Shown here piece after piece: positions 5,603 through 43,601 of a stretch of 64,000 nt of DNA; position 1 is the first letter of the stretch; the number at the start of each line of letters is the position of its first letter. The notes beneath the pieces are model-generated. The model saw only the letters and a program-made list of their open reading frames with translations, was not told the origin of the DNA and made no database searches. The stretch comes from Synergistales bacterium. GTDB lineage: Bacteria > Synergistota > Synergistia > Synergistales > JAFGMB01. The position numbers were made by a program, and so were the translations under genes. The stretch is taken from positions 1,088,001 to 1,152,000 of the forward strand of contig OY762654.1 of the NCBI GenBank assembly GCA_963666205.1. Reading direction: 5' to 3'.

Positions 5603-6514
5603 CTATTTCAGTGCTTTGTAGACCCCTTCATAGGCTGGAACACTGATACCCAGTTCTGCCGCTTTTTTAACCACATAGCCGATAAAGAGTTCGAGTTCGT
5701 TATTCCCACCCTTTTCTACATCGAGCTGCATGGAGGATTTGGTTTGAGGAGGGAAGTTCTTTCCCACATTTATGGAGTCCTGTACTATCCCTGGTGGAAG
5801 TTGAACTCCCAGGGTTCTACCGATCTGTTCGAGCTCGGTTATCATATTTACGAGAAGTTCAAAACTCTCCTGATCTGAGAGGACTTCTCCGAAGGTCTGT
5901 CCCTTTACGGATGTTACCCCTGCATAGGGACTCATGAACATGAACTTTTTCCATGCATCAAGGGTTATATTATCTGAAAGGACAGAATTGATCCCAGCCT
6001 CGGTAAAGAGTTTCTGTATGGGCTCATAAAGGTCAACCCCTGCATTTTCTGGTCCCCAGACAAATTTACCGGCACCGCCAACCTGCCTTACGACTCCGGG
6101 TTCCTCTATCCTGGCCGATATGTAGACACAGCCGTTCATGATCCTGCATTTCGGGAGAACTGCCTCCAGGATCTGGCTGTTATTAACTCCGTTGAGAAAG
6201 GGAATGACCACAGTTTTTTCAGTTACTGTGCATGAGGCCATTCTGGCGGCTTCCTTCAGCCCATATCCCTTGACAGCAAAAACAAGGAGATCCACCTTGC
6301 CCAGGTCACCCGGGTCTGCCGTTGCCACATCAGGTCTTACCGTAAATTCCTCTTCCGGCGTGATTATCTTCAATCCATCTTTCTTTATCTTTTCAAGGTG
6401 GTTGCCCCTGCAGATAAAACATACTTCATGATCTCCAGGACCTGCATATTTCCGGGCCAGTTTTCCTCCGAAGAAACCACCTATGCCTCCTATACCCATC
6501 ACAGCTATTTTCAT
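5603..6514 (-). CDS. panE: Ketopantoate reductase family protein (PanE/ApbA)
   Basis: GIGGIGG Rossmann motif, AVKGY, FLNG, WKKF, KSSMQLD...ELE motifs. Confidence 0.85.
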   Translation of the reverse strand: MKIAVMGIGGIGGFFGGKLARKYAGPGDHEVCFICRGNHLEKIKKDGLKIITPEEEFTVRPDVATADPGDLGKVDLLVFAVKGYGLKEAARMASCTVTEKTVVIPFLNGVNNSQILEAVLPKCRIMNGCVYISARIEEPGVVRQVGGAGKFVWGPENAGVDLYEPIQKLFTEAGINSVLSDNITLDAWKKFMFMSPYAGVTSVKGQTFGEVLSDQESFELLVNMITELEQIGRTLGVQLPPGIVQDSINVGKNFPPQTKSSMQLDVEKGGNNELELFIGYVVKKAAELGISVPAYEGVYKALK

Positions 6515-6628
6515 TATCCAACCTCCTGATCCTTATGTTATAGCAATTTCCAGAACCGGTTAAAAACTGAAAGAGATGTTCACAGAGAACATCCTTTTCA
6601 TTTTCTCAGGATTGAACATAATTTCCCA

Positions 6629-7315
6629 TTATCCTGTTTTCTCTTCAGGAAGGACCCAGACAGCGAGGGCTTCTTTCATGTTCATGACCGCCGGTGTCCC
6701 GTTCAGGCTGACCTCGATGAGCTGCTCTTCACAACTGTGGTTTATGCACTGGACATGGGAACCCGGGGAAAAGCCCGAATCAAGAAGTCTTTTTCTTAGA
6801 AGTTCCCTTGCGGTTATACGCACCACTCTCCCGTTCTCTCCTTCTTCAAGCATTAATAGAGGGCGGGACAGATCCTCGGGATTATCAAGTCCGCTCTGCA
6901 GTCTTGCGACCCACTGTCTCTCTTCTTTCATGGAAACACAGTAAAAGTCTACAAAAGCAGCAAGCCTTTTTTCACTCTCCGGATCAAGGACATGTTCCAT
7001 TGCACATGCGATTTCACTGGCAACATCCGGCTTTATCCCTATTATCTCCCTTAGGAGATAGGAAAGATGCTGATGACGCCGGAAGATCTTCAAGGCCCGT
7101 TCCTTACCCTTTTCAGTAAGATTGGGAGTTCCGTATTTTTCCTGAACAAGAAAACCTTCCCCACACAGTTTTTTGAGGGCAGAAACAACGGAAGCCTTTG
7201 AGACATGCAGATTTTTTGCAAGGGCCGTTACAGAAGGTTCCTGGCTTTCCATTTCCAGGGAAAATATCTCTTCGAGATAATCTTCAGTTCTTTCAGAAAG
7301 AGCCATTATTCTCAC
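6629..7315 (-). CDS. DtxR/MntR-family metal-dependent repressor with C-terminal FeoA-like domain
   Basis: TEDYLEEI, VSKASV HTH, RRHQHL and ACAMEH metal site; RKRLLDSGFSPG FeoA-like tail. Confidence 0.9.
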   Translation of the reverse strand: MRIMALSERTEDYLEEIFSLEMESQEPSVTALAKNLHVSKASVVSALKKLCGEGFLVQEKYGTPNLTEKGKERALKIFRRHQHLSYLLREIIGIKPDVASEIACAMEHVLDPESEKRLAAFVDFYCVSMKEERQWVARLQSGLDNPEDLSRPLLMLEEGENGRVVRITARELLRKRLLDSGFSPGSHVQCINHSCEEQLIEVSLNGTPAVMNMKEALAVWVLPEEKTG

Positions 7316-7322
7316 TCCAATT

Positions 7323-7392
7323 GTTAGGTCTTTCGAACTATTTTACAACAAAATCTCATCTTAAGCTATATTACCAGTTTAATTTTTCTAAC
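7323..7392. promoter_or_regulatory. Two putative DtxR-family operators upstream of the regulator
   Basis: GTTAG-N6-CGAAC (7323-7338) and GTTTA-N6-CTAAC (7377-7392). Confidence 0.55.
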
Positions 7393-7445
7393 AGATCCAT
7401 TACATGGAAGTCCTACAACACATATTGAGTATACAAAACTTATGC

Positions 7446-7504
7446 TTGCATATTTGAAATGACTATAATATAATATAACTAACAATATGTTAGAGCTTTC
7501 TAAA
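7446..7504 (+). promoter_or_regulatory. Sigma70 promoter with a downstream putative DtxR-family operator
   Basis: TTGCAT-N17-TATAAT (7446-7474) and GTTAG-N6-CTAAA (7489-7504). Confidence 0.6.
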
Positions 7505-7612
7505 GATACCTCCCCTAAGGTTCATTTAGCGAGCATATTGTAGACCTGGGAAAAGGGATGTACGTAGAAATACCTACATTTTTTACAGCACTTTTTCCCA
7601 GGTATTTTTTTT
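7481..7612 (+). ncRNA. Candidate structured small RNA or regulatory 5' leader
   Basis: Stem ACAATATGTT/AGCATATTGT enclosing ACCTCCCC; second stem ACCTGGGAAAAG/TTTTTCCCAGGT followed by T8. Confidence 0.4.
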
Positions 7613-7649
7613 GTATCAGGGTAGAATTACCCCATGGAGGTGTTTTCAT

Positions 7650-7952
7650 TTGAAAATAAGATCAATATTTTTTCTACTGGTAATAGCATTTATGGCTCTT
7701 TCATTACTTTCCACGACAGCCTTTGCCGCGGAGGCTCTATATATATGCCGTCCATGCAGCAGAAGCTTTATCCCTGAAGCAAAGAGCGTCCTGGAGGAAC
7801 TCGATCTTGAAGACAAGGTCAGGATAAAGACCACTTCATGTCTTGGAGACTGTGACAAGCCCGTGGTTCTTAAGTTTCAGAATAAAATATATACAAGTAT
7901 GGATAGAGAGAAACTGAAAATGCTCCTTATGGAAGTATTTGATCTTTCCTGA
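7650..7952 (+). CDS. Exported small protein resembling thioredoxin-like (2Fe-2S) ferredoxins
   Basis: Signal peptide ending AFA-A, CRPC and CLGDC motifs; GGAGGT precedes TTG 7650 (ORF track gives 7611). Confidence 0.6.
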   Translation: MKIRSIFFLLVIAFMALSLLSTTAFAAEALYICRPCSRSFIPEAKSVLEELDLEDKVRIKTTSCLGDCDKPVVLKFQNKIYTSMDREKLKMLLMEVFDLS

Positions 7953-7977
7953 AAATCAGGAAAAGGAGGAATATGAT

Positions 7978-8640
7978 ATGAGATCGGTATCCTTTAAAAA
8001 AATATTGCTGGCCATAATGGTCCTGTTTACTGCTTTATCAGTATTTTCCCCTTCTGCAAAGGCCGTAGACGTACTGGAAATGGAAAAGCAGGAACTTTCC
8101 AGAAATGAAATTGAAGGGATTCTTCTGATGAGAGAAGAGGAAAAACTGGCCAGAGACGTATATCTGACCCTTGGAGAAAAGTGGGATCTGAAACCTTTTT
8201 TTAATATAGCCGAAAGCGAGCAGAAACATATGGATGAGATGGGATCCCTGGTAACAAAATATGACCTGGAAGATCCCGTAAAGGATGATACAAGGGGCGT
8301 ATTTACAAACCCGGAAATGAAAAAACTCTACGACGAACTTCTTGCCAAAGGGCAGAAATCCAGACTTGATGCCTTTAAAGTGGGAACAATGATCGAAGAC
8401 CTGGACATCGCAGATCTTGAGGCGCTTCTTAAGGAAACGGATAACGATGATATAAGGATCGTTTATCTGAACCTAGTAAAGGGATCCAGAAACCATCTGA
8501 GAACCTTTCATTTTCAGATTGAAAAATCCGGAGGCACCTACAAGGCACAATATATCACCGATGATATGTATAATAAGATCACAGGATCTCAGAAGGAACA
8601 GTACGAAATATCCGATCCGGATTTCAAGTATGAATATTAG
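7978..8640 (+). CDS. DUF2202 ferritin-like protein with signal peptide
   Basis: MREEEKLARDVY, SEQKH, IEDLDI and GSRNHLR motifs; AGGAGG precedes ATG 7978. Confidence 0.8.
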   Translation: MRSVSFKKILLAIMVLFTALSVFSPSAKAVDVLEMEKQELSRNEIEGILLMREEEKLARDVYLTLGEKWDLKPFFNIAESEQKHMDEMGSLVTKYDLEDPVKDDTRGVFTNPEMKKLYDELLAKGQKSRLDAFKVGTMIEDLDIADLEALLKETDNDDIRIVYLNLVKGSRNHLRTFHFQIEKSGGTYKAQYITDDMYNKITGSQKEQYEISDPDFKYEY

Positions 8641-32419: not shown

Positions 32420-33790
32420 CTAGTATCCCTTCGGTCTTGGCCAGCTCTCTACCCCGGCACTTAGCAGCTTCTCCGTGTCAACTTTCCTGTAGCGGTGAAG
32501 GACAAACCAGAGGGAGGCTATTAGATAGAAACAGAATCCGGATATCATGTTAACCCAGTAGCCGAAATACATGCCCACCAGCGTTGCCAGGGTCAGTATT
32601 ATCAGTACCACTGCAGGAAGGGGATGCCAGGGGGCAATATATCCACGATCAATGCTGCCCAGAGGATACATCCTGCGGAATTTGAACATCATATACGCGC
32701 TCAATGCATAGACCAGAAGTGCTGAAAGTATGGAGAAGGTTATAACCTGGTCAAGGAGTCCCGTGAAACCGAAGGCGATGGCTATGGGAAGCAGGAATAT
32801 TATCGCCCGGTAGGGTGTATTGTACCTGGGATGGACCGCAGCAAAGGCTTCTGATATGAGGGTGTCCCTGGACATGGCGAACCAGGCTCTGCTTGCATCA
32901 GTTATACAACCGTTGGCACTGGCCATGCAGGAGAGAATGGTACCTATGAATAACATGACCACCACAAAGGGCATTCCGGTAGCCCGGGCTGCATCGAAAA
33001 GTGGATATACGGACGAACCGAGCTCTCTGGAGTGAACCAGACCGGAACATACGAACCAGGTAACTGTGGCTCCTATAAGCAGGGTCACCATTCCGGTGAG
33101 GGCTCCTACCGGCAGGGACCTGCTGGTAGATCTGCACTCCTCCGCTGCCAGGGCGGTCCCCTCCACTCCGAGGTAGAACCAGATGCCGAACTGGAAAGCT
33201 CCCACTATGCCTATCCATCCGTAGGGAAGTCCGTTGGTCAGTTCCGGCAGCTTAAGAAGACTTTCTGATGGACTATAGAACTTGGTCGCAAAGAGAAGGA
33301 CGAAGATTGATATGTAGGCTATTGCTGTTATAACAAAGTTAAAGGTGAGAGTGGCATAAACTCCCCGGTAATTCAGGTAGGTCAGTCCTACCAGGGTAAG
33401 TATTATGTAGGGCAGGCTATGGATGTGAGGACTCAGCGTCTTCAGTATCTCCCCAACCACCAGGGCATCCGCTGCTTCCAGCATGACATATTCAAAAACA
33501 AGCATGAGACCTACGTTGAAAGCTGCAAGGGGGCCAAGGAGATACTTGGCCATGGTGTACTGTCCTCCTGCTTCAGGCATGACAGAACCTATTTCTGTAT
33601 TTATCATAACCAGGGATACATAGAGAAGACCCATGATCCAGCAGGCGATTATGGCTCCTATGGACCCTCCCTTGGCTATTGTGAAATTCCACCCCATGAA
33701 CTCTCCCACGAGCACTATTCCCACTCCAAGAGCCCAGATATGCATGGGCCCCAGGACCTTGGAGAGTCTTTCCATCTTTTCTCCGCTCAT
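32420..33790 (-). CDS. APC-superfamily permease, ethanolamine/amine permease (Eat)-like
   Basis: IWALGVGIV..GEFMGWNF, MPEAGG, WFYLGVEG...AAEE, VHPRYNTPYRA. Confidence 0.85.
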   Translation of the reverse strand: MSGEKMERLSKVLGPMHIWALGVGIVLVGEFMGWNFTIAKGGSIGAIIACWIMGLLYVSLVMINTEIGSVMPEAGGQYTMAKYLLGPLAAFNVGLMLVFEYVMLEAADALVVGEILKTLSPHIHSLPYIILTLVGLTYLNYRGVYATLTFNFVITAIAYISIFVLLFATKFYSPSESLLKLPELTNGLPYGWIGIVGAFQFGIWFYLGVEGTALAAEECRSTSRSLPVGALTGMVTLLIGATVTWFVCSGLVHSRELGSSVYPLFDAARATGMPFVVVMLFIGTILSCMASANGCITDASRAWFAMSRDTLISEAFAAVHPRYNTPYRAIIFLLPIAIAFGFTGLLDQVITFSILSALLVYALSAYMMFKFRRMYPLGSIDRGYIAPWHPLPAVVLIILTLATLVGMYFGYWVNMISGFCFYLIASLWFVLHRYRKVDTEKLLSAGVESWPRPKGY

Positions 33791-33978
33791 CTCAATTCAC
33801 CGGACCCTTCTGTTTTTCCGCTGGTTGCTGAATTTTTCATTCCGGAAGGGTTCTGGCTATTCCCTGCCCTGTTTATCTTTCTTTCTTTTTCTACAATGAA
33901 AAAATCCCTGAACATTACTGCCAGCATTAATATGGAAAGTCCCCAGGCAACGAGGTTCATCATCTTCCAGAAATTCAT
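33787..33978 (-). CDS. Small single-TM protein
   Basis: 63 aa with one TM helix; 4-nt overlaps with both neighbours. Confidence 0.6.
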   Translation of the reverse strand: MNFWKMMNLVAWGLSILMLAVMFRDFFIVEKERKINRAGNSQNPSGMKNSATSGKTEGSGELR

Positions 33979-34307
33979 CCTTCATTCCTCCCCGCCCGCT
34001 TCTCCACAACTCTTTCCAAGTCTCTCTTTTCTTTCCTGTCATAGTGTGCAGCATAAAAACTCTTAAGCTCTCCCTCGGAATGGTGGATTATGTAGACCAG
34101 GTATATGACGAGAAAGGAGGCTGTGAATGAGAAACTGGCCATGTTGAAGGTGTAGGTAAGACCTCCACCGCTTCCCGACCCTACTATAACCTTCCCTCTC
34201 ATGAGCATGGTGGTGAGAAGGGTCACGAAACAGAGGACCATTACGAAGAGAATGTCAAAGGCCTCGACAAGGAATGTCCGGACCTTTCCTTTATTATCTG
34301 AAGACAT
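33975..34307 (-). CDS. Small membrane protein (two TM segments, Gly-rich loop)
   Basis: 110 aa in an operon with the permease. Confidence 0.7.
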   Translation of the reverse strand: MSSDNKGKVRTFLVEAFDILFVMVLCFVTLLTTMLMRGKVIVGSGSGGGLTYTFNMASFSFTASFLVIYLVYIIHHSEGELKSFYAAHYDRKEKRDLERVVEKRAGRNEG

Positions 34308-34310
34308 TAT

Positions 34311-34661
34311 CTATGCCTCCCCTTCCAGAAGAACTTCTGTTTTACCAGGGTCGGCTACAGTTTCTTCTGCTATTCCCATTCCTTTCAGAAGGAGAAGGTT
34401 ATCAACATCCTCTCCATAGAGGACCCTTCTTTTCTGTTTGAGGTGAACCAGAACAGCCACAAGCGATGCGGTACAGAATATTCCCACCGTGAGAGCCGAT
34501 GCCATGGCTATGGTCCTGACCATGCTTCCATCCAGGAGGTTAACCACCTGGGAGAGAACCAGGGCCAGTATGGCCCACATTAAGAGTATGAATCCGGTTA
34601 TCACCATGGTGTCACAGACATAGAGTCGCTTCATCATGGCTTCCCTGCTGATGGATGACAA
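34311..34661 (-). CDS. Small membrane protein (two TM segments)
   Basis: 116 aa; first gene of the permease operon. Confidence 0.7.
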   Translation of the reverse strand: MSSISREAMMKRLYVCDTMVITGFILLMWAILALVLSQVVNLLDGSMVRTIAMASALTVGIFCTASLVAVLVHLKQKRRVLYGEDVDNLLLLKGMGIAEETVADPGKTEVLLEGEA

Positions 34662-35031: not shown

Positions 35032-35068
35032 ATAGCAAGCGGGCGACTGAAAGCCGCCCGCTTGCTAT
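35032..35068 (-). terminator. Terminator of the AcnX/TRAP operon
   Basis: TAGCAAGCGGGCG/CGCCCGCTTGCTA inverted repeat. Confidence 0.8.
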
Positions 35069-35085
35069 AAACAATATATTATCCG

Positions 35086-35535
35086 TCAGTCTTTTGGTCT
35101 GTAAACATGGACTGAGCAGGGAGCATGGCGCACAACTTTTGCAGCCACACTTCCGATAAAGAATCTCTCAATATCACTCAAACCCTTATGACCTATCATT
35201 ATAAGATCATAATTGCCTGCCTCACTTGTCTCTATTATGGTCGAGGAGGGTTCTCCGATCCTGAGGATCAATTCACAGGCAAGTTTATCCAGTGCAAATT
35301 TTTTTCTCCAGGTTTCTATCATGACATGGAACTTCTCCCTGAGCTCATCCTCTTCTGAAGGTTCTATTTCCTTGAAATTTATGTTCCAGCCGGCCCGGGT
35401 AGGGATCCTTCCCTCTACCACATGGATGAAGTCTATCCTTTCCACATCTTCCCGAGAAGCATATGACAGGGCATAAGCTGCAAGATCTTCACTGAAAGGA
35501 CTCTCATCAATTGCCACAAGTATTTTTTCCCCCAT
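35086..35535 (-). CDS. Universal stress protein, TRAP-associated
   Basis: KILVAID and GHKG...IGSVAAKVVRHAPCSV; start at MGEK 35535 (ORF track gives 35616). Confidence 0.9.
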   Translation of the reverse strand: MGEKILVAIDESPFSEDLAAYALSYASREDVERIDFIHVVEGRIPTRAGWNINFKEIEPSEEDELREKFHVMIETWRKKFALDKLACELILRIGEPSSTIIETSEAGNYDLIMIGHKGLSDIERFFIGSVAAKVVRHAPCSVHVYRPKD

Positions 35536-35557
35536 CTTTACAAACCCCCTTTCGTAC

Positions 35558-36874
35558 CTAGAACAGAACCCTTCCCAGGAACCAGCTGGGCAATGCAAGT
35601 GATACAGCAGGAACATAAGTGGTTATTATAAGGGTGGGCATCCATGCAAAGATGATCATAAGCATGGTTGGCCTAAGCATTTCCTTTATACTGGCCTTAC
35701 CCAGACGTCCTCCAAGATAAAGAAGGGGTGCCGTCGGGGGCGTAATATTACCCATTCCAAGGTTCACACCGAGAATAGCAGCGAACTGGATTGGGCTTAC
35801 CCCTATCTTGACCATAAGCGGAAGAAGAAGGGGGGTACAGAGAAGGGTCCCGCTGACATCATCCATAAGCATCCCGATCATTACCATGAAGATATTCACC
35901 ATTATAAGGATGATCCTTGGATCTTCAGATACGCTCATGAAAATACCTATTACTTTGTTGGGGAGATTCTCCATAACAAAGAGTCTGCTAAGTATCATTA
36001 CTATAAGGAACATTACCATTAACACACCTGTAGTGGTCCCTGTATCGACAAGGGCTTCCTTGAAAGAAGTGAAGGTAAGACCCTTATATACGAAAAATCC
36101 TACAGGTATGGCATAGAGGACAGATACAGCGGCAGCTTCAGTGGGAGTCATTATTCCAGCGTAAATACCACCAAGAATGATCACCGGCATTAACAGAGCA
36201 GGAATGGCTTTTTTAGTCCTGGTCCAGTTGCTATCAACTATTTCGATCTTCTCTTCCTGCTTCCTTATGTGAGTCTCGTTCATCTCAGGTGATGTCCTGC
36301 ATATGTACCAGTTGACACAACAGAGGAGAAAGGCCAGAAGAAGACCAGGTCCTACTGTCGCAAGGAAACATGTGAGAACGGACTGGTTGGCGCTCCATGC
36401 ATATATGATCTGGATGGAACTTGGCGGAATGAGCAATCCCAGAGGGGATGCATTAACTATGATCGAGGCAGCGTGCCCCTTACTGTAACCGGCCTCTCTC
36501 AGCTTCGGGAACATGATGCTCCCTATACATGAAAGGGTCGCTGCTGCACTGCCCGAGATAGCTCCGAAAAGAGCGGAAGCGATGATGGCAACTGCACCCA
36601 GCCCTCCCCGTATTTTGCCCACAAAAATATTGATAAAGCCGACCAGCGCGTCACCGATGTTACCCCTTTCCATGATCCCTCCAGCAAGTATAAAGAGAGG
36701 AATGGCAAGAAGTACTATGGTGTTGAGCTTACTGTATCCGCTTGAAAGAAGAGCTCCTGACTGATATCCCATGGCCACCACCATGTAGATAAGCGAGGTG
36801 CCGAAAGCAAATACTACGGGTACACCGATAACTATAGTAAAGATCAGCAGAAAGATCGTAATTATCAAGCCCAT
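35558..36874 (-). CDS. dctM: TRAP transporter large permease
   Basis: AIPLFILAG, SGSAAA, IPPSS, TPTEAAA, TPPTAP. Confidence 0.95.
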   Translation of the reverse strand: MGLIITIFLLIFTIVIGVPVVFAFGTSLIYMVVAMGYQSGALLSSGYSKLNTIVLLAIPLFILAGGIMERGNIGDALVGFINIFVGKIRGGLGAVAIIASALFGAISGSAAATLSCIGSIMFPKLREAGYSKGHAASIIVNASPLGLLIPPSSIQIIYAWSANQSVLTCFLATVGPGLLLAFLLCCVNWYICRTSPEMNETHIRKQEEKIEIVDSNWTRTKKAIPALLMPVIILGGIYAGIMTPTEAAAVSVLYAIPVGFFVYKGLTFTSFKEALVDTGTTTGVLMVMFLIVMILSRLFVMENLPNKVIGIFMSVSEDPRIILIMVNIFMVMIGMLMDDVSGTLLCTPLLLPLMVKIGVSPIQFAAILGVNLGMGNITPPTAPLLYLGGRLGKASIKEMLRPTMLMIIFAWMPTLIITTYVPAVSLALPSWFLGRVLF

Positions 36875-37444
36875 TTAAGATACCTCCCCCTGTCGGGATG
36901 GCTTCAGGCCATCTCCGTCTTTGCCAGCCTGACTCTTTCCGGGAAAGGCCTCTCGAAATACCTGGTAAAACCTGACCAGGGAATAGATGCTCATTATGGA
37001 AAAACCAAGGAGTATTGAACTCTGGGGGATAACCATGGGGATCCTCCAGGCTATGGATCTGGCATGTTTAACGATACCCCATACAAAATAGTTATAAGCC
37101 CAGTAGTTTATTACAAGGCATACAGTTGTGGAAATGAAGGAAACCAGAAGTTTCATCCTGAGCTTAATCTTTTCGTTCTTTACATATTCGTTCACTATAT
37201 CTGCCTGAATATGGCTGTCTTCGAAGGAACCATAGGCTGCTCCCATCATATAGAGCCAGAATGCGAAGATGAGTATGAATTCCTCAGCTCCGTAAAGGTC
37301 CTTGTGAAGGATGTATCTGAAAAAGACCTGGGCTCCTATTCCAAGGGTGAGCAGAGTCTGGGCCAGTATAACCATGAATGACAGAAATTTCGGAATTATA
37401 ACTTTCAGAAAGAGTTCACCTGAATTACGTTGCTGTTGCGGCAT
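36875..37444 (-). CDS. dctQ: TRAP transporter small permease
   Basis: QVFFRY, EE...FWLY, SHIQAD; start probably ATG 37444. Confidence 0.85.
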   Translation of the reverse strand: MPQQQRNSGELFLKVIIPKFLSFMVILAQTLLTLGIGAQVFFRYILHKDLYGAEEFILIFAFWLYMMGAAYGSFEDSHIQADIVNEYVKNEKIKLRMKLLVSFISTTVCLVINYWAYNYFVWGIVKHARSIAWRIPMVIPQSSILLGFSIMSIYSLVRFYQVFREAFPGKSQAGKDGDGLKPSRQGEVS

Positions 37445-37510
37445 TTTCTTTAGCCTCCATCTCTTTGGAAGTCCTTTTACCTGTTTGTTCGAAAGATGGA
37501 AAAGGAAAGA

Positions 37511-37545
37511 GGAGAGGGTCATCCCCTACTGGGAGGACCCTCTCC
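37511..37545 (-). terminator. Internal stem-loop after dctP
   Basis: GGAGAGGGTC/GACCCTCTCC inverted repeat. Confidence 0.6.
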
Positions 37546-37562
37546 ATTATCGTGGCAGATAT

Positions 37563-38576
37563 TTACTCGAAATCGGCCATAAGCCCCTTGATCACATCTT
37601 CACCGAACATCTTGGAGAACTTGGGCCAGGAAACCTTTCTCACCTGGGCAGCAAGAGCTTCTATGTCTTCCTGTGAAATATCGTGGATCCTGACACCGTT
37701 TTCTTCAGCAAGTTTTTTCTGATAGTCAGCTTCGGTCTTCTGGGCATTCTCAACGCTCAATTTAGCCTGTTTCTGACAAGCATCAAAAATAACCTTTCTG
37801 TACTCTTCCGGAAGTCTTTCAAAAGCATCAACGTTCATTATGTAGGATACATTTTCAACAAACATCCGAACCGGGTAGAAATCCTTGATCAGATCTCTGA
37901 ACTGGAAGTAGTTCAGAGTAGCAGTTCCGCCTATCCATCCATCACAGACACCAGTCTGCATTGAGGTATAAAGGTCTGACCAGTTTATGGTTACGGTATC
38001 GTAATTGAGGTCCTTCATGGTAACCTTGTAAAGTTCTGCCGGTGGGATCCTGATAAGGATATTATGGTTGGCTTCAACATTGAAGGGCTCTGTGGGTTCT
38101 TTCATTGTGGCAAGAGAAATAAAGCTGTCCACATAGACACCAAGAAGTTTCACATTGACCTCGGCATGAGCTGCCTCATAGGTCTTGTACCAGAAGGAAG
38201 ATGGGGAGAACACCTTGGCGAGGCCTTCCCATGTCGTTGCCAGATAAGGCATGGAAGAGATCTCGAGCATGGGGTTGTACTGACCTGTGATGTAAAAGAA
38301 TCCCATGTCCACATTGCCGCGCATTATATCCTCGTAAACCTGGCTGTAATCCCCCAGCTGTCCTCCGGGATAAACCATGATCTCGACTTCTCCGTTTGTC
38401 GCCTGTTTTACTTCCTCTGCAATATCATACTGGGATTTTGTTCCGGGATGATCCGGAGCATAGTTACCGGCAAAACGGAGCTTATACTTCACCTTTGCAT
38501 CTGCAGCAAGAGCAAAAACCGTTACCATCATTGCCACCAGAAGGAACAACACCATGAATCTTGAATACTTTTTCAT
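37563..38576 (-). CDS. dctP: TRAP substrate-binding protein
   Basis: Signal peptide, YPGGQLGDY, LIRIPP, WSDLYTSMQTGVCDG. Confidence 0.9.
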   Translation of the reverse strand: MKKYSRFMVLFLLVAMMVTVFALAADAKVKYKLRFAGNYAPDHPGTKSQYDIAEEVKQATNGEVEIMVYPGGQLGDYSQVYEDIMRGNVDMGFFYITGQYNPMLEISSMPYLATTWEGLAKVFSPSSFWYKTYEAAHAEVNVKLLGVYVDSFISLATMKEPTEPFNVEANHNILIRIPPAELYKVTMKDLNYDTVTINWSDLYTSMQTGVCDGWIGGTATLNYFQFRDLIKDFYPVRMFVENVSYIMNVDAFERLPEEYRKVIFDACQKQAKLSVENAQKTEADYQKKLAEENGVRIHDISQEDIEALAAQVRKVSWPKFSKMFGEDVIKGLMADFE

Positions 38577-38642
38577 TTTGATTTCTCCTCCTCTTATTGA
38601 TCTTCTTATCTTTTTGTTTCTTTTAAAACACTAACACCATCG

Positions 38643-39443
38643 TTAAACAAAACCGTAATAGGGTTTCTGAGCTACTACACTGTGAGCGTATCTGATAAGT
38701 GTAATGAAATCGAATACAGGAAGATCGGTCGCTCTCTGCACATCAGCTGCATATGGAGGCATATCACTGCATTCAAGGAGAATAGCACCTACCTCCGGAT
38801 GGGTTTCCTTTATCCTTAATGCTGTTGAAACCACCTCATCCCGGACCTTCCTGTTGTCGAAGTACCCCCTGTCACTGTGAAGGATGGATTCAAACTCTCC
38901 TCCCCTCGGGATCTCCTCGCAGACACATACATCGGGATCAGCTCCACAGCTTTCCCAGATATCCGGGGTCAGAGAAGGCTTGTCAGCGCAGATAAGGCCT
39001 ACCTTCTGATCTGACCTTATCACTGATTTTATCCAGGGTATCTGGACGAGACTTGAAAGAAAGGTGGGAACATTCAGGGCATCCCTTACCTGGCTCTGAA
39101 AATGCCCGAAGTAACCGCAGGCACCGCATATGGCCCTGCATCCTTCCATTTCCAGCTCTCTAGCTGTAGCGATCAGATCATCAAGGAGTGATGGATCTCC
39201 CCCGTGCATCCTCTCCTGGTTGGAACCAGGCACTACACGATGTCTGACAGGGAAATCATAGGTATATGCATTGACTACATTTCCCGGAATAAGGGGATAC
39301 CATACATTCAGGAGCATGATCCCGACGGGATAACCAGAAATGACCTGGCCCTTTTTGATATAAAAGGTCCGATCCTTATCCTCTTCTCTTCCGATAAAAC
39401 CATAATCTCTGTGATCCCTGAACTCTTCTGTCACTTGCTTCAC
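38643..39443 (-). CDS. Asp/Glu/hydantoin racemase-family protein
   Basis: PGNVVNAYTYDFPV; two catalytic-type Cys motifs GACGYF and LECSDMPPY; LPVFD. Confidence 0.8.
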   Translation of the reverse strand: MKQVTEEFRDHRDYGFIGREEDKDRTFYIKKGQVISGYPVGIMLLNVWYPLIPGNVVNAYTYDFPVRHRVVPGSNQERMHGGDPSLLDDLIATARELEMEGCRAICGACGYFGHFQSQVRDALNVPTFLSSLVQIPWIKSVIRSDQKVGLICADKPSLTPDIWESCGADPDVCVCEEIPRGGEFESILHSDRGYFDNRKVRDEVVSTALRIKETHPEVGAILLECSDMPPYAADVQRATDLPVFDFITLIRYAHSVVAQKPYYGFV

Positions 39444-39537
39444 CTCTCATTCCTGCATGCAGATACTTCTGCAAGTTTATGAAAAAATCCAGCTTCAAGG
39501 GTTGGGGACCGGTGATATCGCGCCAGTCCCCCGATAC

Positions 39538-40761
39538 CTACTTTTTCTCTGTATATACTCCGTTGTGAAGATAATCCAGCATTTCTTCCTTCGTCATATG
39601 GCCTATCCCGATATAATCGAGAGTATAGCCCTTTTCCCAGAAATTCTTCCCTGTCATGGCACATGCAAGATGGATCATGGATTCCACTATGGGGATATCT
39701 ACTCCAAACTTTTTTGCCAATTCATGGTATACATGGCAGCCTACGGGGATATCTTCTGTTATATACCTGTTATTGAGGTCAAAGGGACCTGTACCGTACT
39801 GGATATAATCCTGCTCTTCAAAGGGTATTACATAATCCAGGCCCATATATTCCTGTCCCAGGACATTTTCCCTTGAAAAGAAATGTTCCTTTTCATAGGG
39901 CTGAATACCTACACCCATAGCCTCAGCCAGGGCACATTCCTCTTTATAGAAAGAATACTGAACTTCTGAGACAGCCGGGCAGTATGCATGGGAATAGATG
40001 GAGTAGTCATACTTGTTCTCGCCGTAGATAACTCCCCAGTTCTGCATGACTGCTGCGCCAAGAAGAGTACCCGGGCAATGAAGTACGGGGTTGACGTTAC
40101 TGAAACCAGTATCCATTACAGTGTTGCCGCCAACTGCCCCATCGCCATTGGTAACAGCATCCATGGAGCCCATATATTTTGAGCTCTCAAGAAAAGCTTC
40201 CTGATCGACTGAGGGAAGTGCTGCACCCCTGAGGGTAATAGCCCTGTAATAGACACGGATCTGGGGAAGAATAACTCCGCCCTTGTTCTCCACCCGGCAT
40301 CCGTAAGGTGCACTTGACCAGCCTCCAATGATAACTTTCTTGGTACATCCGGCTTCACGCATCATCTTTCTCAGAAGAAGGGTCCCGTAGTTGTCCGGGA
40401 AAATATGAATTACCATCCCATCCTCAAGAGCAGGGATAAGTTTTTCAAAGAAAGGTCTGTGACCAACGGACGGGGTGGCTACAATAACAATACCTGCACC
40501 TTTAACGGCTTCAGCTATATCAGTAGTCACCATATCCATTTTTGCTAGTCCTTCACGTTCAAAACCGTAAAGGTTAAGCTGCTGGCCAAAGAATTTAATA
40601 CCTTTATCCACGCCGAAAAGGGTCTTTGTGGCAAAAGGTTCAATGTCACATATCCTTACCTTTGCACCTGCCAGAGCACAGTCCGCTGCCTGAGCTTTGG
40701 CAACAGCACCTGCTCCAAGTACTGCTATTGGTTTGTCCTTAAGATATTCCATATTACTCAT
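39538..40761 (-). CDS. NAD(P)-dependent opine (octopine/nopaline) dehydrogenase family protein
   Basis: VLGAGAVA Rossmann motif, SNVNPVLHCP, NRYITEDIPVG. Confidence 0.85.
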   Translation of the reverse strand: MSNMEYLKDKPIAVLGAGAVAKAQAADCALAGAKVRICDIEPFATKTLFGVDKGIKFFGQQLNLYGFEREGLAKMDMVTTDIAEAVKGAGIVIVATPSVGHRPFFEKLIPALEDGMVIHIFPDNYGTLLLRKMMREAGCTKKVIIGGWSSAPYGCRVENKGGVILPQIRVYYRAITLRGAALPSVDQEAFLESSKYMGSMDAVTNGDGAVGGNTVMDTGFSNVNPVLHCPGTLLGAAVMQNWGVIYGENKYDYSIYSHAYCPAVSEVQYSFYKEECALAEAMGVGIQPYEKEHFFSRENVLGQEYMGLDYVIPFEEQDYIQYGTGPFDLNNRYITEDIPVGCHVYHELAKKFGVDIPIVESMIHLACAMTGKNFWEKGYTLDYIGIGHMTKEEMLDYLHNGVYTEKK

Positions 40762-40859
40762 ACCTGATACTGCCTCCTTGTTTGTTCTGTAATAATGCCT
40801 ATATGATCAATATTGACTCCATTGCCGGCTTTCTGAAGTCAACATATTACATCCGTAAT

Positions 40860-41285
40860 CTAGTGGTCCTTTTTTCGGGACAGTATTTCTATGATCCCTC
40901 TATCCCCATCGACCCTGACCAGATCTCCTGTTCTTATAATCTCAAAGGGGTCTTCTTCAAGGTCCGTCACTGCAGGAACTCCTGTAACCACTGCTGCCAC
41001 TCCGGTGCGGGAATCCATCCTGGGAAATATCAGGGCCGCAGGGCCTATGCCCCCTACCCGGGCTGCATGGAAATGACAGGACCATCCGTTGGATCCCTTG
41101 CCTCCCGAGAGGACAAGGACCCCTCCCTTTATGCTCATTCCTTCAAAGGGATGCCCCTTCTCTATGACGATGCCTGTTCTGTCGTCCACTCCGCTCCAGC
41201 CCTGGATGGTCTCCCTGCTCACCATGGCTATGCCCTCCGCTACTCCTCCTATGGCTCCTCTACCGTGAAGTACTATCCTTTCCAT
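40860..41285 (-). CDS. Aconitase X swivel subunit (DUF126)
   Basis: GGVAEGIA, GVDDRTG, HPFEG, GGKGS, VRVDGDRG. Confidence 0.85.
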   Translation of the reverse strand: MERIVLHGRGAIGGVAEGIAMVSRETIQGWSGVDDRTGIVIEKGHPFEGMSIKGGVLVLSGGKGSNGWSCHFHAARVGGIGPAALIFPRMDSRTGVAAVVTGVPAVTDLEEDPFEIIRTGDLVRVDGDRGIIEILSRKKDH

Positions 41286-41287
41286 AT

Positions 41288-42556
41288 CTATCTGCCCTCC
41301 CAGTAGCCGCTGACCGCTGACTTAAGACAGTCTTCCATGGATCCGTACCATACCCTGGCTCCGCTTCCCGGTTTTATATAATGGGCCTGTTTACCGGAAT
41401 CGAAGGCCATGGTAACCGCCCCTTCAGGCTTCTTTTCGCTTGTCAGGGGACAGCTGCTGGTCAGTACTATTCCTCCCGCATTTTCTATTGCCTGGGTATA
41501 TCCGCACCGGTCCGACGTTTCCTTTATGGGGGCTGCTGTCCATACATGGAGGATGGTGTCAGGATCTACCTGCCTCCCCTTCAGGAAATCCGCTGCCATC
41601 ATCATCTGTTCTATGGTGTAATGGGGACAGCCCATGCTTATGTAGTCCAGTTTCTCCCGGCCGCCCTCGTTAAGCATTCCCAGGGATTCCTCTATGTCTT
41701 TCTTCGTTATGGTTATGATCTCCTGTGGTTCAGTTCCTCCCAGGGCTTCTTCAAGAGTCTTCGCTTCGGGGGTTATGCCCACGATATGGCACATCTCGGG
41801 TCCTCCCGTGGTAGCCATGGAAGCATATGCTGACTTAAGCTTCGTCACATCGGGCCTCTGGAATCCCTTTCTGAGTACGGGAATGGAATGGGTGGGGGTC
41901 TTGCGCCCTATGGTATATCCGAGAAGGTCCCAGTCATAAACGGTCTCCGTCGGACATTCCACGTCGAAGATATGGGTTCCCTTACGATTGTTCATCAGAT
42001 GGAGTCCCCACAGGGGTGTCCTGCCGCATACAGCGGACCAGAATCCCGCCTCCAGACCATCCGCCTGTCCGCAAGCTCCCCAGAGAGAGTTCATCATCAG
42101 GACAGCGTGAGATTCACTGGTCACGTAGTGTTCTCCCATGAGGGGAATGAATCCAAGAAGATAGGGTACGCATGACCCTACAAGCTGGACTCCTGCATCC
42201 AGATAGCGTTTGAGGTAATTTACGTTATTTTCATGCTCTTTTTCGGATACTCCCATTTCCTTCCAGTTGAAGGGACACATGGGAGCAACATCGGACTGGG
42301 CATAGCATTCGATCTTGTCAAGAACCACTTTCTCAGAAGAACAGAAGTGCATCTCAGACATGACTTCATCTATATCATCGGAGTCCAGGGCATTCATATA
42401 GGGATGGGATCCGCAGAAAAGGTGAGCCTTGGTCACTACGCAGAGTTCATCCGCTCCAAGGACATGGGCATAACTGACCACATTCTCCATGGCCTTCTGT
42501 TTCAACAGGCCTTCAGAACCATCCAGCATTCGCTTTTCTCTATCAGTCAGGTTCAC
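41288..42556 (-). CDS. Aconitase X catalytic subunit (DUF521)
   Basis: MNLTDREKRMLDG, SCVPY, SESHA, GRTPLWGLH, HIVGITPEA, GCPH, SCP, DSGKQAHY. Confidence 0.88.
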   Translation of the reverse strand: MNLTDREKRMLDGSEGLLKQKAMENVVSYAHVLGADELCVVTKAHLFCGSHPYMNALDSDDIDEVMSEMHFCSSEKVVLDKIECYAQSDVAPMCPFNWKEMGVSEKEHENNVNYLKRYLDAGVQLVGSCVPYLLGFIPLMGEHYVTSESHAVLMMNSLWGACGQADGLEAGFWSAVCGRTPLWGLHLMNNRKGTHIFDVECPTETVYDWDLLGYTIGRKTPTHSIPVLRKGFQRPDVTKLKSAYASMATTGGPEMCHIVGITPEAKTLEEALGGTEPQEIITITKKDIEESLGMLNEGGREKLDYISMGCPHYTIEQMMMAADFLKGRQVDPDTILHVWTAAPIKETSDRCGYTQAIENAGGIVLTSSCPLTSEKKPEGAVTMAFDSGKQAHYIKPGSGARVWYGSMEDCLKSAVSGYWEGR

Positions 42557-42648
42557 TTACCGTACCCTCCTTTAGTATTGGCTCCAGCTATCAAAAAAAG
42601 CCAACAGCAAATGTTTCATTTCGAAATACAGTTTTTATTCTGATTTAT

Positions 42649-43524
42649 TTAAAGCAGATCTGCCAATTCGATTTTTTCGAGGATATAGGCTCCATGCTCC
42701 TCAAGAAAATGATCATATTCTTTAAGCTTTGCCCGGGATTTGTTCTTATCCTTAAGGAATACCCCGATCAATAAAGAATGGATCAGCGCCATTACTGCCC
42801 CGTAAGGATCAATAAAGGACATGAATTTCTGCGGAACGAGAAATAGTATCGATGAAAATGCTGCTATTGGTGAAAGAACGGAATCGGTGATACCTATGAC
42901 CTTGATGTTTTTTTCTTTAAGGTAACTCATTACTTCCTGAGTCTGCTGAGGATATCTAGGGAAACTGAAGACCAGCGCCACCGAATTGGGAGAAAGTGCC
43001 TGGAGAGAATTGAAAGTCTCAGGATCAAAAGAAAGAATCCTTGTTACATTTTCCTTAAAAACATTGAGATAAATGCTGGCATATTCTGCAACGACCCTGT
43101 TGAACTGTGTACCTACAATAATGACATCTTCAGCGTTAAAGATGGAATCTACAGTATCGTTGAAAGAATCTTCACTGATACCTTCAAGCATCTCCTCCAT
43201 AATCGTCTTTTCAAGGGAAATGACTTTGCTGAAAAGGGAATGGCTGTTTTCAAGAGGATATTTCTCCATAGAATGTATTTCCTGGTATAAAAGTTCCTGG
43301 ATGGCAGACTGAAGCTCGGAATAGCCCGGATAACCAAGGGAATAGGCCAGACGGGTGACCGTAGCTTCACTGACACCGGCATTCATTGCCAGAGTAGTGG
43401 AAGATACAAAGGCAATATCTTTAGAATTCTCCGCAATATATTTAGCCAGGGTCCTCTGCTTGGGACTCAATGTAGGAGCGACTTCCCGTATTCTCTCTAA
43501 AACAGATACTTTCTTGTATCCCAT
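42649..43524 (-). CDS. MurR/RpiR-family transcriptional regulator
   Basis: GVSEATVTRLA..LGYPGY HTH and SIS domain FSFPRY, ITDS..SP; AAGGAG precedes ATG 43524. Confidence 0.92.
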   Translation of the reverse strand: MGYKKVSVLERIREVAPTLSPKQRTLAKYIAENSKDIAFVSSTTLAMNAGVSEATVTRLAYSLGYPGYSELQSAIQELLYQEIHSMEKYPLENSHSLFSKVISLEKTIMEEMLEGISEDSFNDTVDSIFNAEDVIIVGTQFNRVVAEYASIYLNVFKENVTRILSFDPETFNSLQALSPNSVALVFSFPRYPQQTQEVMSYLKEKNIKVIGITDSVLSPIAAFSSILFLVPQKFMSFIDPYGAVMALIHSLLIGVFLKDKNKSRAKLKEYDHFLEEHGAYILEKIELADLL

Positions 43525-43525
43525 C

Positions 43526-43601
43526 TGAAAAATCTCCTTCATCCTAGATTTTTGATGAAGAACTTTCTACAAAGAGTAGATGACCTTCATCTTTTTGTCA
43601 A
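43526..43601 (-). promoter_or_regulatory. Promoter of the rpiR-acnX operon with putative RpiR operators
   Basis: TTGACA-N17-TACTCT (43601-43573, minus strand); TGAAA-N6-CTTCA (43526), TGAAG-N6-CTACA (43556), AGTAG-N5-CTTCA (43575). Confidence 0.6.

Follow-up and report, generated by a model that had tools for sequence, protein, structure and literature searches.

We analyzed a 64,000-nt stretch of the genome of a Synergistales bacterium (GenBank assembly GCA_963666205.1, contig OY762654.1, positions 1,088,001 to 1,152,000 of the forward strand), referred to here as the window, and focused on a cluster of nine minus-strand genes between positions 35086 and 43542. The cluster encodes a regulator of the RpiR family, both subunits of an aconitase X (AcnX), an opine-dehydrogenase homologue (ODH), a racemase-like protein (Rac), a tripartite ATP-independent periplasmic (TRAP) transporter, and a universal stress protein (USP). 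To our knowledge, only two activities have been assigned to aconitase X. Judged by its sequence, the AcnX of the window is probably neither of these two enzymes, and its activity is probably new. For the operon as a whole we tentatively put forward, at somewhat less than an even chance, a route by which an anaerobic fermenter of amino acids would first dehydrate and then reduce a beta-hydroxy alpha-amino or imino acid (reductive dehydroxylation). The logic of such a pathway is already known; the three enzyme clades that would build it are unassigned, uncharacterized members of known families.

An earlier note, made from the letters of the window (hereafter, the sequence-only reading), had listed nine co-oriented genes. 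All nine open reading frames (ORFs) are present, and Pfam and NCBIfam searches upheld their family calls:

42649..43542, minus strand: RpiR/MurR-family regulator with HTH_6 and SIS domains (Pfam, NCBIfam)
41288..42556, minus strand: AcnX large subunit, 422 amino acids, of an uncharacterized clade (PF04412, 376.5 bits; cut-off, 31.5)
40860..41285, minus strand: AcnX small (swivel) subunit, 141 amino acids (PF01989, 83.7 bits; cut-off, 27)
39538..40761, minus strand: ODH, opine-dehydrogenase-family NAD(P) oxidoreductase, 407 amino acids (Pfam Octopine_DH, PF02317, 104.6 bits; cut-off, 30)
38643..39443, minus strand: Rac, PRK07475-type protein of the Asp/Glu-racemase superfamily with two Cys (NF005679/PRK07475, 287 bits; cut-off, 231)
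37563..38576, minus strand: TRAP solute-binding protein DctP (Pfam, 140.6 bits; NCBIfam)
36875..37522, minus strand: TRAP small membrane subunit DctQ (Pfam, 72.2 bits)
35558..36874, minus strand: TRAP large membrane subunit DctM (Pfam, 276.2 bits; NCBIfam)
35086..35616, minus strand: USP (Pfam Usp)

The gaps between the genes do not exceed 98 nt. The genes for the AcnX subunits are 2 nt apart and are separated from the upstream rpiR by 92 nt and from the downstream ODH gene by 98 nt. The ATG at 43524, behind AAGGAG, is a likelier start of rpiR than 43542, and the true USP start probably lies downstream of the listed one, which creates an overlap of 59 nt with dctM. The three TRAP components are adjacent, and all score above their cut-offs. 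When DctP was compared with solved solute-binding proteins, the best match had an E value of 1.3e-17 and the top matches bind unrelated ligands; its ligand cannot be inferred, because no solved solute-binding protein is close.

An uncharacterized clade of aconitase X

The two subunits identify a two-subunit Type II AcnX. The large subunit carries GSCVPY, MGCPHY, and SSCPL, which contain the three cysteine motifs that the sequence-only reading had pointed out (SCVPY, GCPH, and SCP), together with FCGxH and ESH. In the small subunit, the catalytic Ser lies in KGS-NGW-SCHFH and a Trp lies in IQGWSGVD. The new AcnX activity that the sequence-only reading had implied is made probable by three sets of observations. 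(i) Neither subunit reached the 700-bit cut-off of the equivalog NF051439 (the large one scored 195.7 bits, the small one 46.1), and the protein is about equally distant from the two solved enzymes, AtAcnX, a dehydratase acting on cis-3-hydroxy-L-proline (E value of 2e-43), and the archaeal TkAcnX (7e-42). (ii) Residues were matched by HMMER alignments to AtAcnX and TkAcnX and are given in AtAcnX numbering, with their roles as described in sections 7, 9, and 12 of PMC8184944. Ser70, Glu292, Ser293, Lys530, Tyr534, and Trp35 are kept. Since the first five are also found in TkAcnX, they mark AcnX catalysis and not specificity for cis-3-hydroxy-L-proline. Cys273 and Cys508 are kept, a Cys occupies the position of Ser449, as in TkAcnX, and Cys510 is absent. 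In AtAcnX, Asp203 and Thr72 bind the substrate nitrogen, and Trp35 and Ile206 make ring contacts (PMC8184944). Both nitrogen-binding residues are replaced in the window protein, as are Cys71 (by Asn), Ile206 (by Pro), and Asn294 (by His). The phosphate-binding stretch of mevalonate-5-phosphate dehydratase, Gly48-Val49-Ser50 with Asn53 and Asn79 (PMC8184944), is not found either: the window protein has F-C-G-S-H-P there and is two residues longer, the column of Asn53 is variable inside the clade, and the alignment at Asn79 is ambiguous. No mevalonate gene is present among the 14 ORFs scanned between 32420 and 45939, namely, the nine of the cluster and five flanking ones. (iii) The homologues of the window protein share a signature and lack functional names. 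Our alignments of the loci comprised 42 ORFs for the large and 35 for the small subunit, in which some rows represent the same gene twice. The motif [F/Y]-x-G-x-H is present in all 21 large-subunit rows that are at least 43% identical, 17 of which read FCG; GSNGW is found in 17 small-subunit rows and GSTGW in 3. Among the best 120 small-subunit homologues in the databases, 115 have GSNGW and 100 have GSNGWSxHFH, and none of these homologues carries a functional name in the source databases.

The labeled sources of the homologues are Synergistales, Clostridia, Tissierellales, Eubacteriaceae, and other anaerobes, and the closest public relative of the window AcnX (96%) is labeled as a metagenome-assembled genome (MAG) of Acetomicrobium hydrogeniformans. 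The window AcnX is a member of a separate clade from anaerobes that is marked by GSNGWSxHFH plus FCGxH. According to section 14 of PMC8184944, complete conservation of the binding site marks Type IIa, and the bacterial subclasses IIc to IIf lack the landmarks of both known activities.

The opine-dehydrogenase homologue and the racemase-like protein

ODH aligns over its full length with the opine dehydrogenase 1bg6, its best solved relative (E value of 4e-23). The motifs NxNxxxH and RYITED, to which the sequence-only reading had drawn attention, are found in the translation as NVNPVLH and NNRYITED and align with TNVNAVMH and NTRYFFED of 1bg6. The common elements, NVN.V.H and N.RY..ED, hold the His-Asp dyad of the opine-dehydrogenase family (PMC10787698). 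Based on the sequence and its context, we propose that ODH may act as an imine (ketimine) reductase. Just past the window end, the same genome contains an ODH paralogue next to two saccharopine-dehydrogenase-like genes, a GntR gene, a Rac paralogue (34%), a split DcuC gene, and M20 peptidase genes (L032, G000:C1:1150001-1164000); this is possibly another cluster for secondary-amine catabolism.

Rac is assigned to NF005679/PRK07475, and its score for Pfam Asp_Glu_race is only 27.5 bits against a cut-off of 31. Both cysteines that the sequence-only reading had seen, C109 and C225, are found without exception in an alignment of 30 family members. The PRK07475-type family comprises at least 1,877 database clusters, none of which is functionally named, and the literature searched, with most subscription journals outside it, contained no functional assignment of this family or of the AcnX clade. 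A sequence search of the Protein Data Bank (PDB) with Rac gave no meaningful match. Its predicted model (pLDDT of 91) was matched by Foldseek, at a probability of 1.0 and TM values of 0.5 to 0.6, to glutamate, aspartate, hydantoin, and allantoin racemases and to arylmalonate decarboxylase. This comparison places Rac only at the level of the Asp/Glu/hydantoin racemase superfamily, whose two-domain fold has a catalytic Cys in each half, without telling racemases apart from decarboxylase or isomerase members; as its role, we propose that of a putative C-alpha epimerase.

Gene neighborhoods in other genomes

The recurring partnership expected from the sequence-only reading was found in three distant loci, which come from Bacillota or metagenomes and represent other phyla or orders than the window; in each, AcnX, ODH, Rac, and a transporter occur together. 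L003, which is a Bacillota MAG, has, in this order, ODH, a proline-racemase-family gene, the large and small AcnX subunits, Rac, DctPQM, a second proline-racemase-family gene, and a fused serine-dehydratase-like gene; the product of the second proline-racemase-family gene carries Ser in place of the first catalytic Cys. L005 is arranged as ODH-DctPQM-AcnXLS-Rac. In L028, the order AcnXLS-Rac-ODH is accompanied by a Liv-type amino-acid ABC transporter, in place of the TRAP transporter, and by a fused serine-dehydratase-like gene.

A different set of partners is found at the same locus of a congener (L001), where the flanking deacetylase, two small membrane proteins, and APC permease are 88 to 99% identical to those of the window. 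There, the AcnX pair (96% identical) lies beside a different RpiR (44 to 45%), an OCD/mu-crystallin gene, another TRAP transporter, RidA, a serine-dehydratase-alpha-like gene encoding 431 amino acids, and a fused serine-dehydratase-like gene encoding 515 amino acids. Clusters of the L001 type are also present in L002/L065 and L049. The OCD protein of L001 scores 58.8 bits against the BhcD cut-off of 500. Next to the clade AcnX, an individual operon has either ODH or OCD: the window, L003, L005, and L028 have ODH without OCD, and L001, L007, and L049 have OCD without ODH. In the metagenome contigs L019 and L020, the ODH module and an OCD-type AcnX cluster are adjacent, as divergent operons. The OCD family comprises known pyrroline-2-carboxylate reductases and includes an opine (tauropine) dehydrogenase (PMC4113996); the OCD and opine-dehydrogenase families therefore overlap in chemistry. 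That the cluster contains neither a proline racemase nor a pyrroline-2-carboxylate reductase had been used as an argument in the sequence-only reading. This argument is misleading, since genes of the proline-racemase and OCD families are present in related loci, a proline-racemase-family gene is found in another part of the window genome, and ODH itself is a plausible imine reductase.

Further neighbors of the clade AcnX related to amino or imino acids are DAO and DHDPS in L009 and APC permeases. RidA genes lie near it in L001, L002, L006, L013, L019/L020, and L049, and genes for tautomerase-like DUF1904 proteins lie near it in L006 and L013. In L007, L013, and L021 to L023, MttB-family methyltransferases and BCCT or OpuA importers are found beside homologues of ODH or of the clade AcnX. 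No informative AcnX neighbors were found in L004, L008, L010, L011, and L012, and in the last of these, a Desulfococcus MAG, a glutamate formiminotransferase-cyclodeaminase gene is located directly upstream of the clade AcnX (6364-7989). In L021, L022, and L023, ODH homologues that are 69 to 78% identical adjoin MttB-family methyltransferases; L021 also contains a proline-racemase-family fragment, and L023 has genes for a PanB-like and a Rac-like protein in addition to an OpuA-type ABC importer. This context hints at an anaerobic metabolism of the proline-betaine type.

More diverged, paralogous copies, AcnX' (55%) and ODH' (57 to 59%), lie together in both G001 and G004, where an MmgE/PrpD gene and a TAXI-TRAP transporter separate them. 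The order in L047 (G001:C14:58001-77000) and L066 is RpiR, AcnX', the MmgE/PrpD-family gene, TAXI-TRAP, and ODH'; 5-oxoprolinase-family genes (LamB/YcsF, CT_A_B, and CT_C_D) lie upstream of the RpiR gene, and the small subunit reads GSTGWSCR and has no equivalent of Trp35.

Proposed pathway

The recurrent partners make or consume 2-imino acids, and ODH and OCD are exchanged for each other. A scheme of import, epimerization, dehydration, and reduction is the simplest. It draws on the catalytic residues and three Cys that AcnX retains, on the amino- and imino-acid neighbors of the clade, on the linked AcnX'/ODH' pairs, and on the precedent of the proposed uehABC-usp-eutABC scheme. In this scheme, the TRAP transporter DctPQM, with USP, would take up a carboxylate. 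The two-Cys PRK07475 enzyme would then epimerize C-alpha so that H-2 and OH-3 become anti. In the Fe-S enzyme AcnX, the conserved Ser would abstract H-2 and the cluster would expel OH-3, giving an enamine and then a 2-imino acid, which ODH would reduce with NAD(P)H to the dehydroxylated amino acid; this last step could also serve as an electron sink. RpiR would regulate the operon.

Among possible substrates, the stereoisomers of 3-hydroxyproline are the likeliest class, a type of substrate that is favored by the proline-racemase-family genes, the Liv importer, and the DAO/DHDPS neighbors. An example route would lead from collagen-derived trans-3-hydroxy-L-proline to cis-3-hydroxy-D-proline, pyrroline-2-carboxylate, and proline. 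cis-3-Hydroxy-D-proline accumulates as a dead end in Pseudomonas. A cis-3-hydroxy-D-proline dehydratase could fill this gap and might account for the changes at the nitrogen-binding site. N-Methylated hydroxyprolines, 3-hydroxyaspartate, and 5-hydroxyectoine, which fall into the same reaction class, are less likely. Given the aromatic replacements in AcnX and the MttB, BCCT, and OpuA neighbors, N-methylated or non-amine substrates are also conceivable. Hydroxyectoine, into whose catabolism the operon grammar would fit, was demoted because orthologues of EutD and EutE are missing from the genome.

A bolder form of the proposal, which we regard as doubtful, is that the GSNGWSxHFH/FCGxH clade would form a third functional AcnX class, whose members would be oxygen-sensitive [4Fe-4S] dehydratases acting on a beta-hydroxy imino acid for which no dehydrating enzyme is known. 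ODH would then be the first ketimine reductase of the opine-dehydrogenase family, and Rac would be the first assigned PRK07475 partner, with AcnX as the shared core for either ODH/Rac or OCD/RidA/serine-dehydratase-like cassettes at one chromosomal locus. The three enzymes would then provide anaerobic amino-acid fermenters with a cofactor-cheap dehydroxylation that is at the same time an electron sink. Candidate substrates of such a third class are cis-3-hydroxy-D-proline and N-methylated hydroxyproline.

Mosaic origin of the cluster and alternative readings

A number of observations weigh against the proposed route. (i) The nine genes, which the sequence-only reading had taken for one operon, are not a single co-conserved unit. 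A locus from another genus of the family (L063) contains a seven-gene module with RpiR (75%), ODH (94%), Rac (90%), DctP (90%), DctQ (74%), DctM (93%), and USP (73%), in which 265 nt without AcnX lie between rpiR and the ODH gene; the AcnX of that genome is on another contig, with RidA and a serine-dehydratase-alpha-like gene. (ii) In blastn comparisons, the AcnX block (42574-40884) is 93% identical in DNA sequence to L001, the segments 43541-42650 and 40781-35086 are 75 to 79% identical to L063, and the outer flanks of the cluster are 89% identical to L001. The recombination breakpoints at about 42574 and 40884 are sharp, so the place of AcnX in the operon could be an accident of cassette exchange. 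(iii) ODH homologues that are 59% identical occur in loci without AcnX (L023, L025, and L026), and the 97% complete genome G017 has such an ODH (59%) and nothing that exceeds the AcnX family cut-off; an AcnX next to them is therefore not needed for ODH and Rac to work. Of 11 metagenome loci retrieved with ODH, 4 of which are on contigs shorter than 7 kb, only 3 have AcnX and 3 have a Rac that is at least 50% identical. (iv) At the nitrogen-binding positions, the window AcnX has Phe for Asp203 and Gly for Thr72, and none of the 21 clade rows has Asp at the former position. An amine substrate would thus have to bind differently, or the substrate may not be an amine. (v) No ketimine or pyrroline-2-carboxylate reductase of the opine-dehydrogenase family was found in the single literature search aimed at it, with the same limit as above. 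(vi) The RNA-library contigs described below may stem from DNA carry-over, and a two-gene contig is no proof of a single transcript. (vii) The reactions, their order, and the substrate are all inferred, the substrate being a guess; for hydroxyectoine in particular, the best genome matches reach 43.5 bits against 613 for EutD and 30.1 against 402.7 for EutE.

Three further data sets bear on the junctions. Contigs from a sediment metatranscriptome library, with a similarity of at least 99%, represent parts of seven of the nine genes and, in favor of the proposed route, one each bridges the ODH/Rac and the dctQ/dctM junctions; stretches such as 40903-41576 and 42925-43598 have no such contigs. 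In metagenome run X6, the depth is about twofold over AcnX, with a loose end exactly at 40884, and an independent assembly contig from run X4, which belongs to another study, bridges the AcnXS/ODH junction. The breakpoints and the bridging contig together indicate that the nine-gene array is real but a derived mosaic. Counting against co-conservation, AcnX was above the cut-off in 12 of 41 Synergistales genomes and a close ODH (E value of at most 1e-60) was present in 5, including G017. Both searched genomes with an ODH of at least 94% identity (G000, which is the window genome, and G003) have a clade AcnX, and L019 and L020 (ODH, 86%) carry AcnX beside the module. AcnX is a fixed core beside which two accessory sets alternate.

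The alternatives differ in how they relate AcnX to its neighbors and in the nitrogen of the substrate. A mosaic without functional coupling, with a self-sufficient seven-gene module and an AcnX pair that came from an OCD/RidA/serine-dehydratase-like pathway by cassette exchange at a recombination-prone locus, would account for the AcnX-free module of L063 and the AcnX on another contig of that genome, for the two breakpoints with 93% identity inside the block and 75 to 79% outside, for the doubled depth and loose end in X6, and for the two separate divergent operons of L019 and L020. We nevertheless judge it unlikely, since L003, L005, and L028 have AcnX, Rac, and ODH in one contiguous stretch and in the same orientation, the diverged AcnX'/ODH' pair is linked in G001 and G004, G000 and G003 hold the clade AcnX and L019/L020 carry it beside the module, and the AcnX genes of the window, with gaps of 92 and 98 nt, have no promoter-like gap of their own. 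Unlikely to much the same degree, if marginally less so, is the degradation of an opine-like N-(carboxyalkyl) amino acid or imino-dicarboxylate, in which Rac or an epimerase would set the configuration, ODH would oxidatively split the secondary amine to an amino acid and a 2-oxo acid, and AcnX would dehydrate a hydroxylated form or product. ODH is a genuine member of the opine-dehydrogenase family with its His and Asp motifs, opines have two stereocenters, so that an epimerase fits, ODH homologues occur with a TRAP transporter and an M20 peptidase and without AcnX in L024 to L026, and the paralogous AcnX'/ODH' cluster L047 has an MmgE/PrpD-family gene, a family that includes iminodisuccinate epimerase. 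However, AcnX would have no obvious task once the opine is cleaved, the cluster holds no lyase or further opine gene, the RidA, OCD, proline-racemase-family, Liv ABC, and DAO/DHDPS neighbors of the clade suit free amino or imino acids, and ODH and OCD are interchanged beside AcnX proteins that are 96% identical. Of the opine-like scheme of import, epimerization, dehydration, and cleavage offered by the sequence-only reading, the novelty of AcnX and the recurrence of its partners are retained, and the opine cleavage is weak, since the context fits a dehydroxylation.

The two remaining alternatives concern the substrate of AcnX. A beta-hydroxy acid with a quaternary nitrogen or with none (carnitine-like, a hydroxyproline betaine, or a plain hydroxy-dicarboxylate) might be converted to an enoate, as in the mevalonate-5-phosphate reaction, with the two-Cys protein acting not as a racemase but as a maleate-isomerase-like cis-trans isomerase. 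The Phe, Gly-Trp, and Trp35 at the amine site of AtAcnX, where TkAcnX has Ala, Val, and Leu, would agree with such a substrate, as would the MttB and BCCT/OpuA neighbors in L007, L013, and L021 to L023 and a fold search that cannot separate a racemase from a decarboxylase or isomerase. Yet the cluster contains no methyltransferase, corrinoid, or betaine-transport genes, an imine reductase would have no role on an enoate, and the RidA, OCD, and proline-racemase context suits imines, which makes this alternative distinctly improbable. We consider it very improbable that the window AcnX, like AtAcnX, is a dehydratase acting on cis-3-hydroxy-L-proline. AtAcnX is its best solved relative (2e-43), Trp35 and the entire catalytic core are kept, and related loci contain hydroxyproline-type genes; but TkAcnX is nearly as similar (7e-42), the large subunit stays at 195.7 bits against the 700-bit equivalog cut-off, Asp203, Thr72, Cys71, Ile206, Asn294, and Cys510 are unconserved, and Type IIa needs complete conservation of the binding site (PMC8184944, section 14). 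Reductive dehydroxylation of a beta-hydroxy amino or imino acid is the reading that we prefer.

Potential significance

Should the reductive dehydroxylation be correct, (i) three unnamed families, namely, the AcnX clade, one opine-dehydrogenase clade, and the PRK07475 racemase-like proteins, would receive a function, and (ii) anaerobes of gut, sludge, and sediment would have an extra route to use hydroxylated amino acids. In any case, the locus gives one AcnX subclass a clear sequence signature, recurrent partner enzymes, and a short, testable list of substrates, and the exchange of cassettes around a fixed AcnX core illustrates how catabolic operons get rebuilt.

Regulatory elements, flanking genes, and host genome

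The following elements flank the nine genes:

43573..43601, minus strand: promoter-like TTGACA-N17-TACTCT (read from sequence)
43591-43579, minus strand: palindrome GATGAAGGTCATC inside the promoter-like spacer (read from sequence)
43537..43560, minus strand: inverted repeat CTTCATC-N10-GATGAAG over the 5' leader and the Shine-Dalgarno region
35032..35068, minus strand: GC-rich hairpin behind usp (arms of 14 bp, loop of 9 nt), without a T-run

The promoter named in the sequence-only reading stands as a sequence, with TTGACA at 43601-43596, a spacer of 17 nt, and TACTCT at 43578-43573. As a promoter it is less certain: its -10 element agrees with TATAAT at only three of six positions, the consensus scan did not list the site, and promoter-like matches in the region are at chance level (15 seen and 15.4 expected). 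The three related palindromes of that reading are present as GATGAAG/CTTCATC repeats at 43591-43579, 43560-43554, and 43543-43537, and the inverted repeat formed by CTTCATC-N10-GATGAAG is a candidate RpiR operator. Downstream of usp, the reported terminator at 35032-35068 is indeed a hairpin. It lacks a T-run and therefore is no canonical intrinsic terminator, and the scan did not list it. This hairpin (window 35037-35083) is 85% identical to the hairpin after the deacetylase gene in L001 (651-697) and may be a repeated, REP-like element at cassette borders. The deacetylase gene upstream of the operon ends in a separate hairpin with a T-rich tail, so that the operon plausibly starts on its own. 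No Rfam family matched anywhere in the window.

Two family-less proteins of 116 and 110 amino acids, which appear by eye to span the membrane, are encoded at window positions 33975-34661 and precede an ethanolamine-permease-like APC transporter (32420-33790). An assignment of the two proteins as DUF1904 tautomerases was ruled out, as they are small membrane proteins with no DUF1904 similarity. The pair and the APC transporter follow the clade AcnX cluster in the window, L001, and L049, in the last case directly after AcnXS, and the three may constitute a three-part importer. Between window positions 28000 and 32000, the G+C content is 0.52 to 0.55, compared with about 0.46 in the rest of the window.

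The window genome, a single contig of 2.95 Mb, was searched by tblastn. It contains a single AcnX, six other, distant ODH paralogues (22 to 28% identical), nine OCD/mu-crystallin matches, and about 25 DctM matches, numbers that point to the make-up of a fermenter of amino acids and organic acids (Acetomicrobium-like, Synergistales). Elsewhere in this genome, L034 combines a proline-racemase-family gene with a D-hydroxyproline-dehydrogenase-like set, and a search for glycine and proline reductases retrieved two GrdE-like genes encoding 445 amino acids. At L030 (G000:C1:1530001-1545000), a GntR gene, an OCD gene, a serine-dehydratase-like gene encoding 523 amino acids, and a TRAP transporter occur without AcnX and RidA, a remnant of the OCD-type module. 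At L033 (G000:C1:2005001-2024000), three OCD-family and three RpiR genes are found within about 19 kb among EamA, TAXI-TRAP, and sugar-kinase-like genes; in this organism, RpiR regulators seem to govern amino-acid clusters.

Comparison with known systems

The archaeal enzyme TkAcnX (Type IIb, PDB entries 7cnr and 7cns) resembles the window AcnX in its two subunits, in the three Cys positions (C-x-PY, GCPH, and SC), and in the hydrophobic residue that replaces Asp203. In contrast, Ala47-Gly48-Val49-Ser50 of TkAcnX corresponds to F-C-G-x-H-x with two extra residues, Leu27 is replaced by Trp, and the window protein belongs to a bacterial, catabolic gene cluster that lacks mevalonate genes.

With the opine dehydrogenases (CENDH/ArODH, 1bg6; octopine dehydrogenase, 3c7a), ODH shares the Octopine_DH domain, a Rossmann N terminus, and the motifs NVN.V.H and N.RY..ED. 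It is, however, a distant relative, about 50 residues longer, and is encoded in a catabolic operon with a dehydratase, and its proposed substrate would be a preformed, probably cyclic imine instead of an amino acid plus a 2-oxo acid.

The route proposed here also has a counterpart in the beta-hydroxyaspartate cycle, where BhcB is a dehydratase and BhcD an OCD-family iminosuccinate reductase: in both, a beta-hydroxy amino acid is converted via an imine to an amino acid. BhcB, however, is a pyridoxal-phosphate (PLP) enzyme, and no Bhc aldolase or transaminase is encoded at the window cluster.

The uehABC-usp-eutABC genes of Ruegeria pomeroyi have the same grammar of TRAP transporter, usp, Asp/Glu-racemase-like protein, dehydratase, and imine reductase (PMC5924519). 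A usp gene follows the TRAP genes in the window, in L063, and in uehABC-usp-eutABCDE of R. pomeroyi. The conversion of 5-hydroxyectoine to ectoine has been proposed for the R. pomeroyi genes, a scheme described there as not evaluated biochemically (PMC5924519). None of the enzymes is orthologous to those of the window: EutB is of the PLP threonine-dehydratase type, EutC belongs to the OCD family, and Rac had no EutA match at an E value of at most 1e-3 in NCBIfam.

The 3-hydroxyproline route of AtAcnX shares with the proposed pathway an AcnX-family dehydratase, in which the Ser, Glu, Ser, Lys, and Tyr residues and two of the three cluster cysteines (Cys273 and Cys508) are kept in the window, and a dehydration to a 2-imino acid followed by reduction with NAD(P)H; in addition, loci related to the window hold proline-racemase-family and OCD genes. 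The window AcnX differs in that it lacks Asp203 and Thr72 and has the archaeal-type Cys pattern, with Cys at Ser449 and no Cys510. Furthermore, the candidate reductase of the window belongs to the opine-dehydrogenase family, and its candidate epimerase belongs to the Asp/Glu-racemase superfamily rather than to the proline-racemase family.

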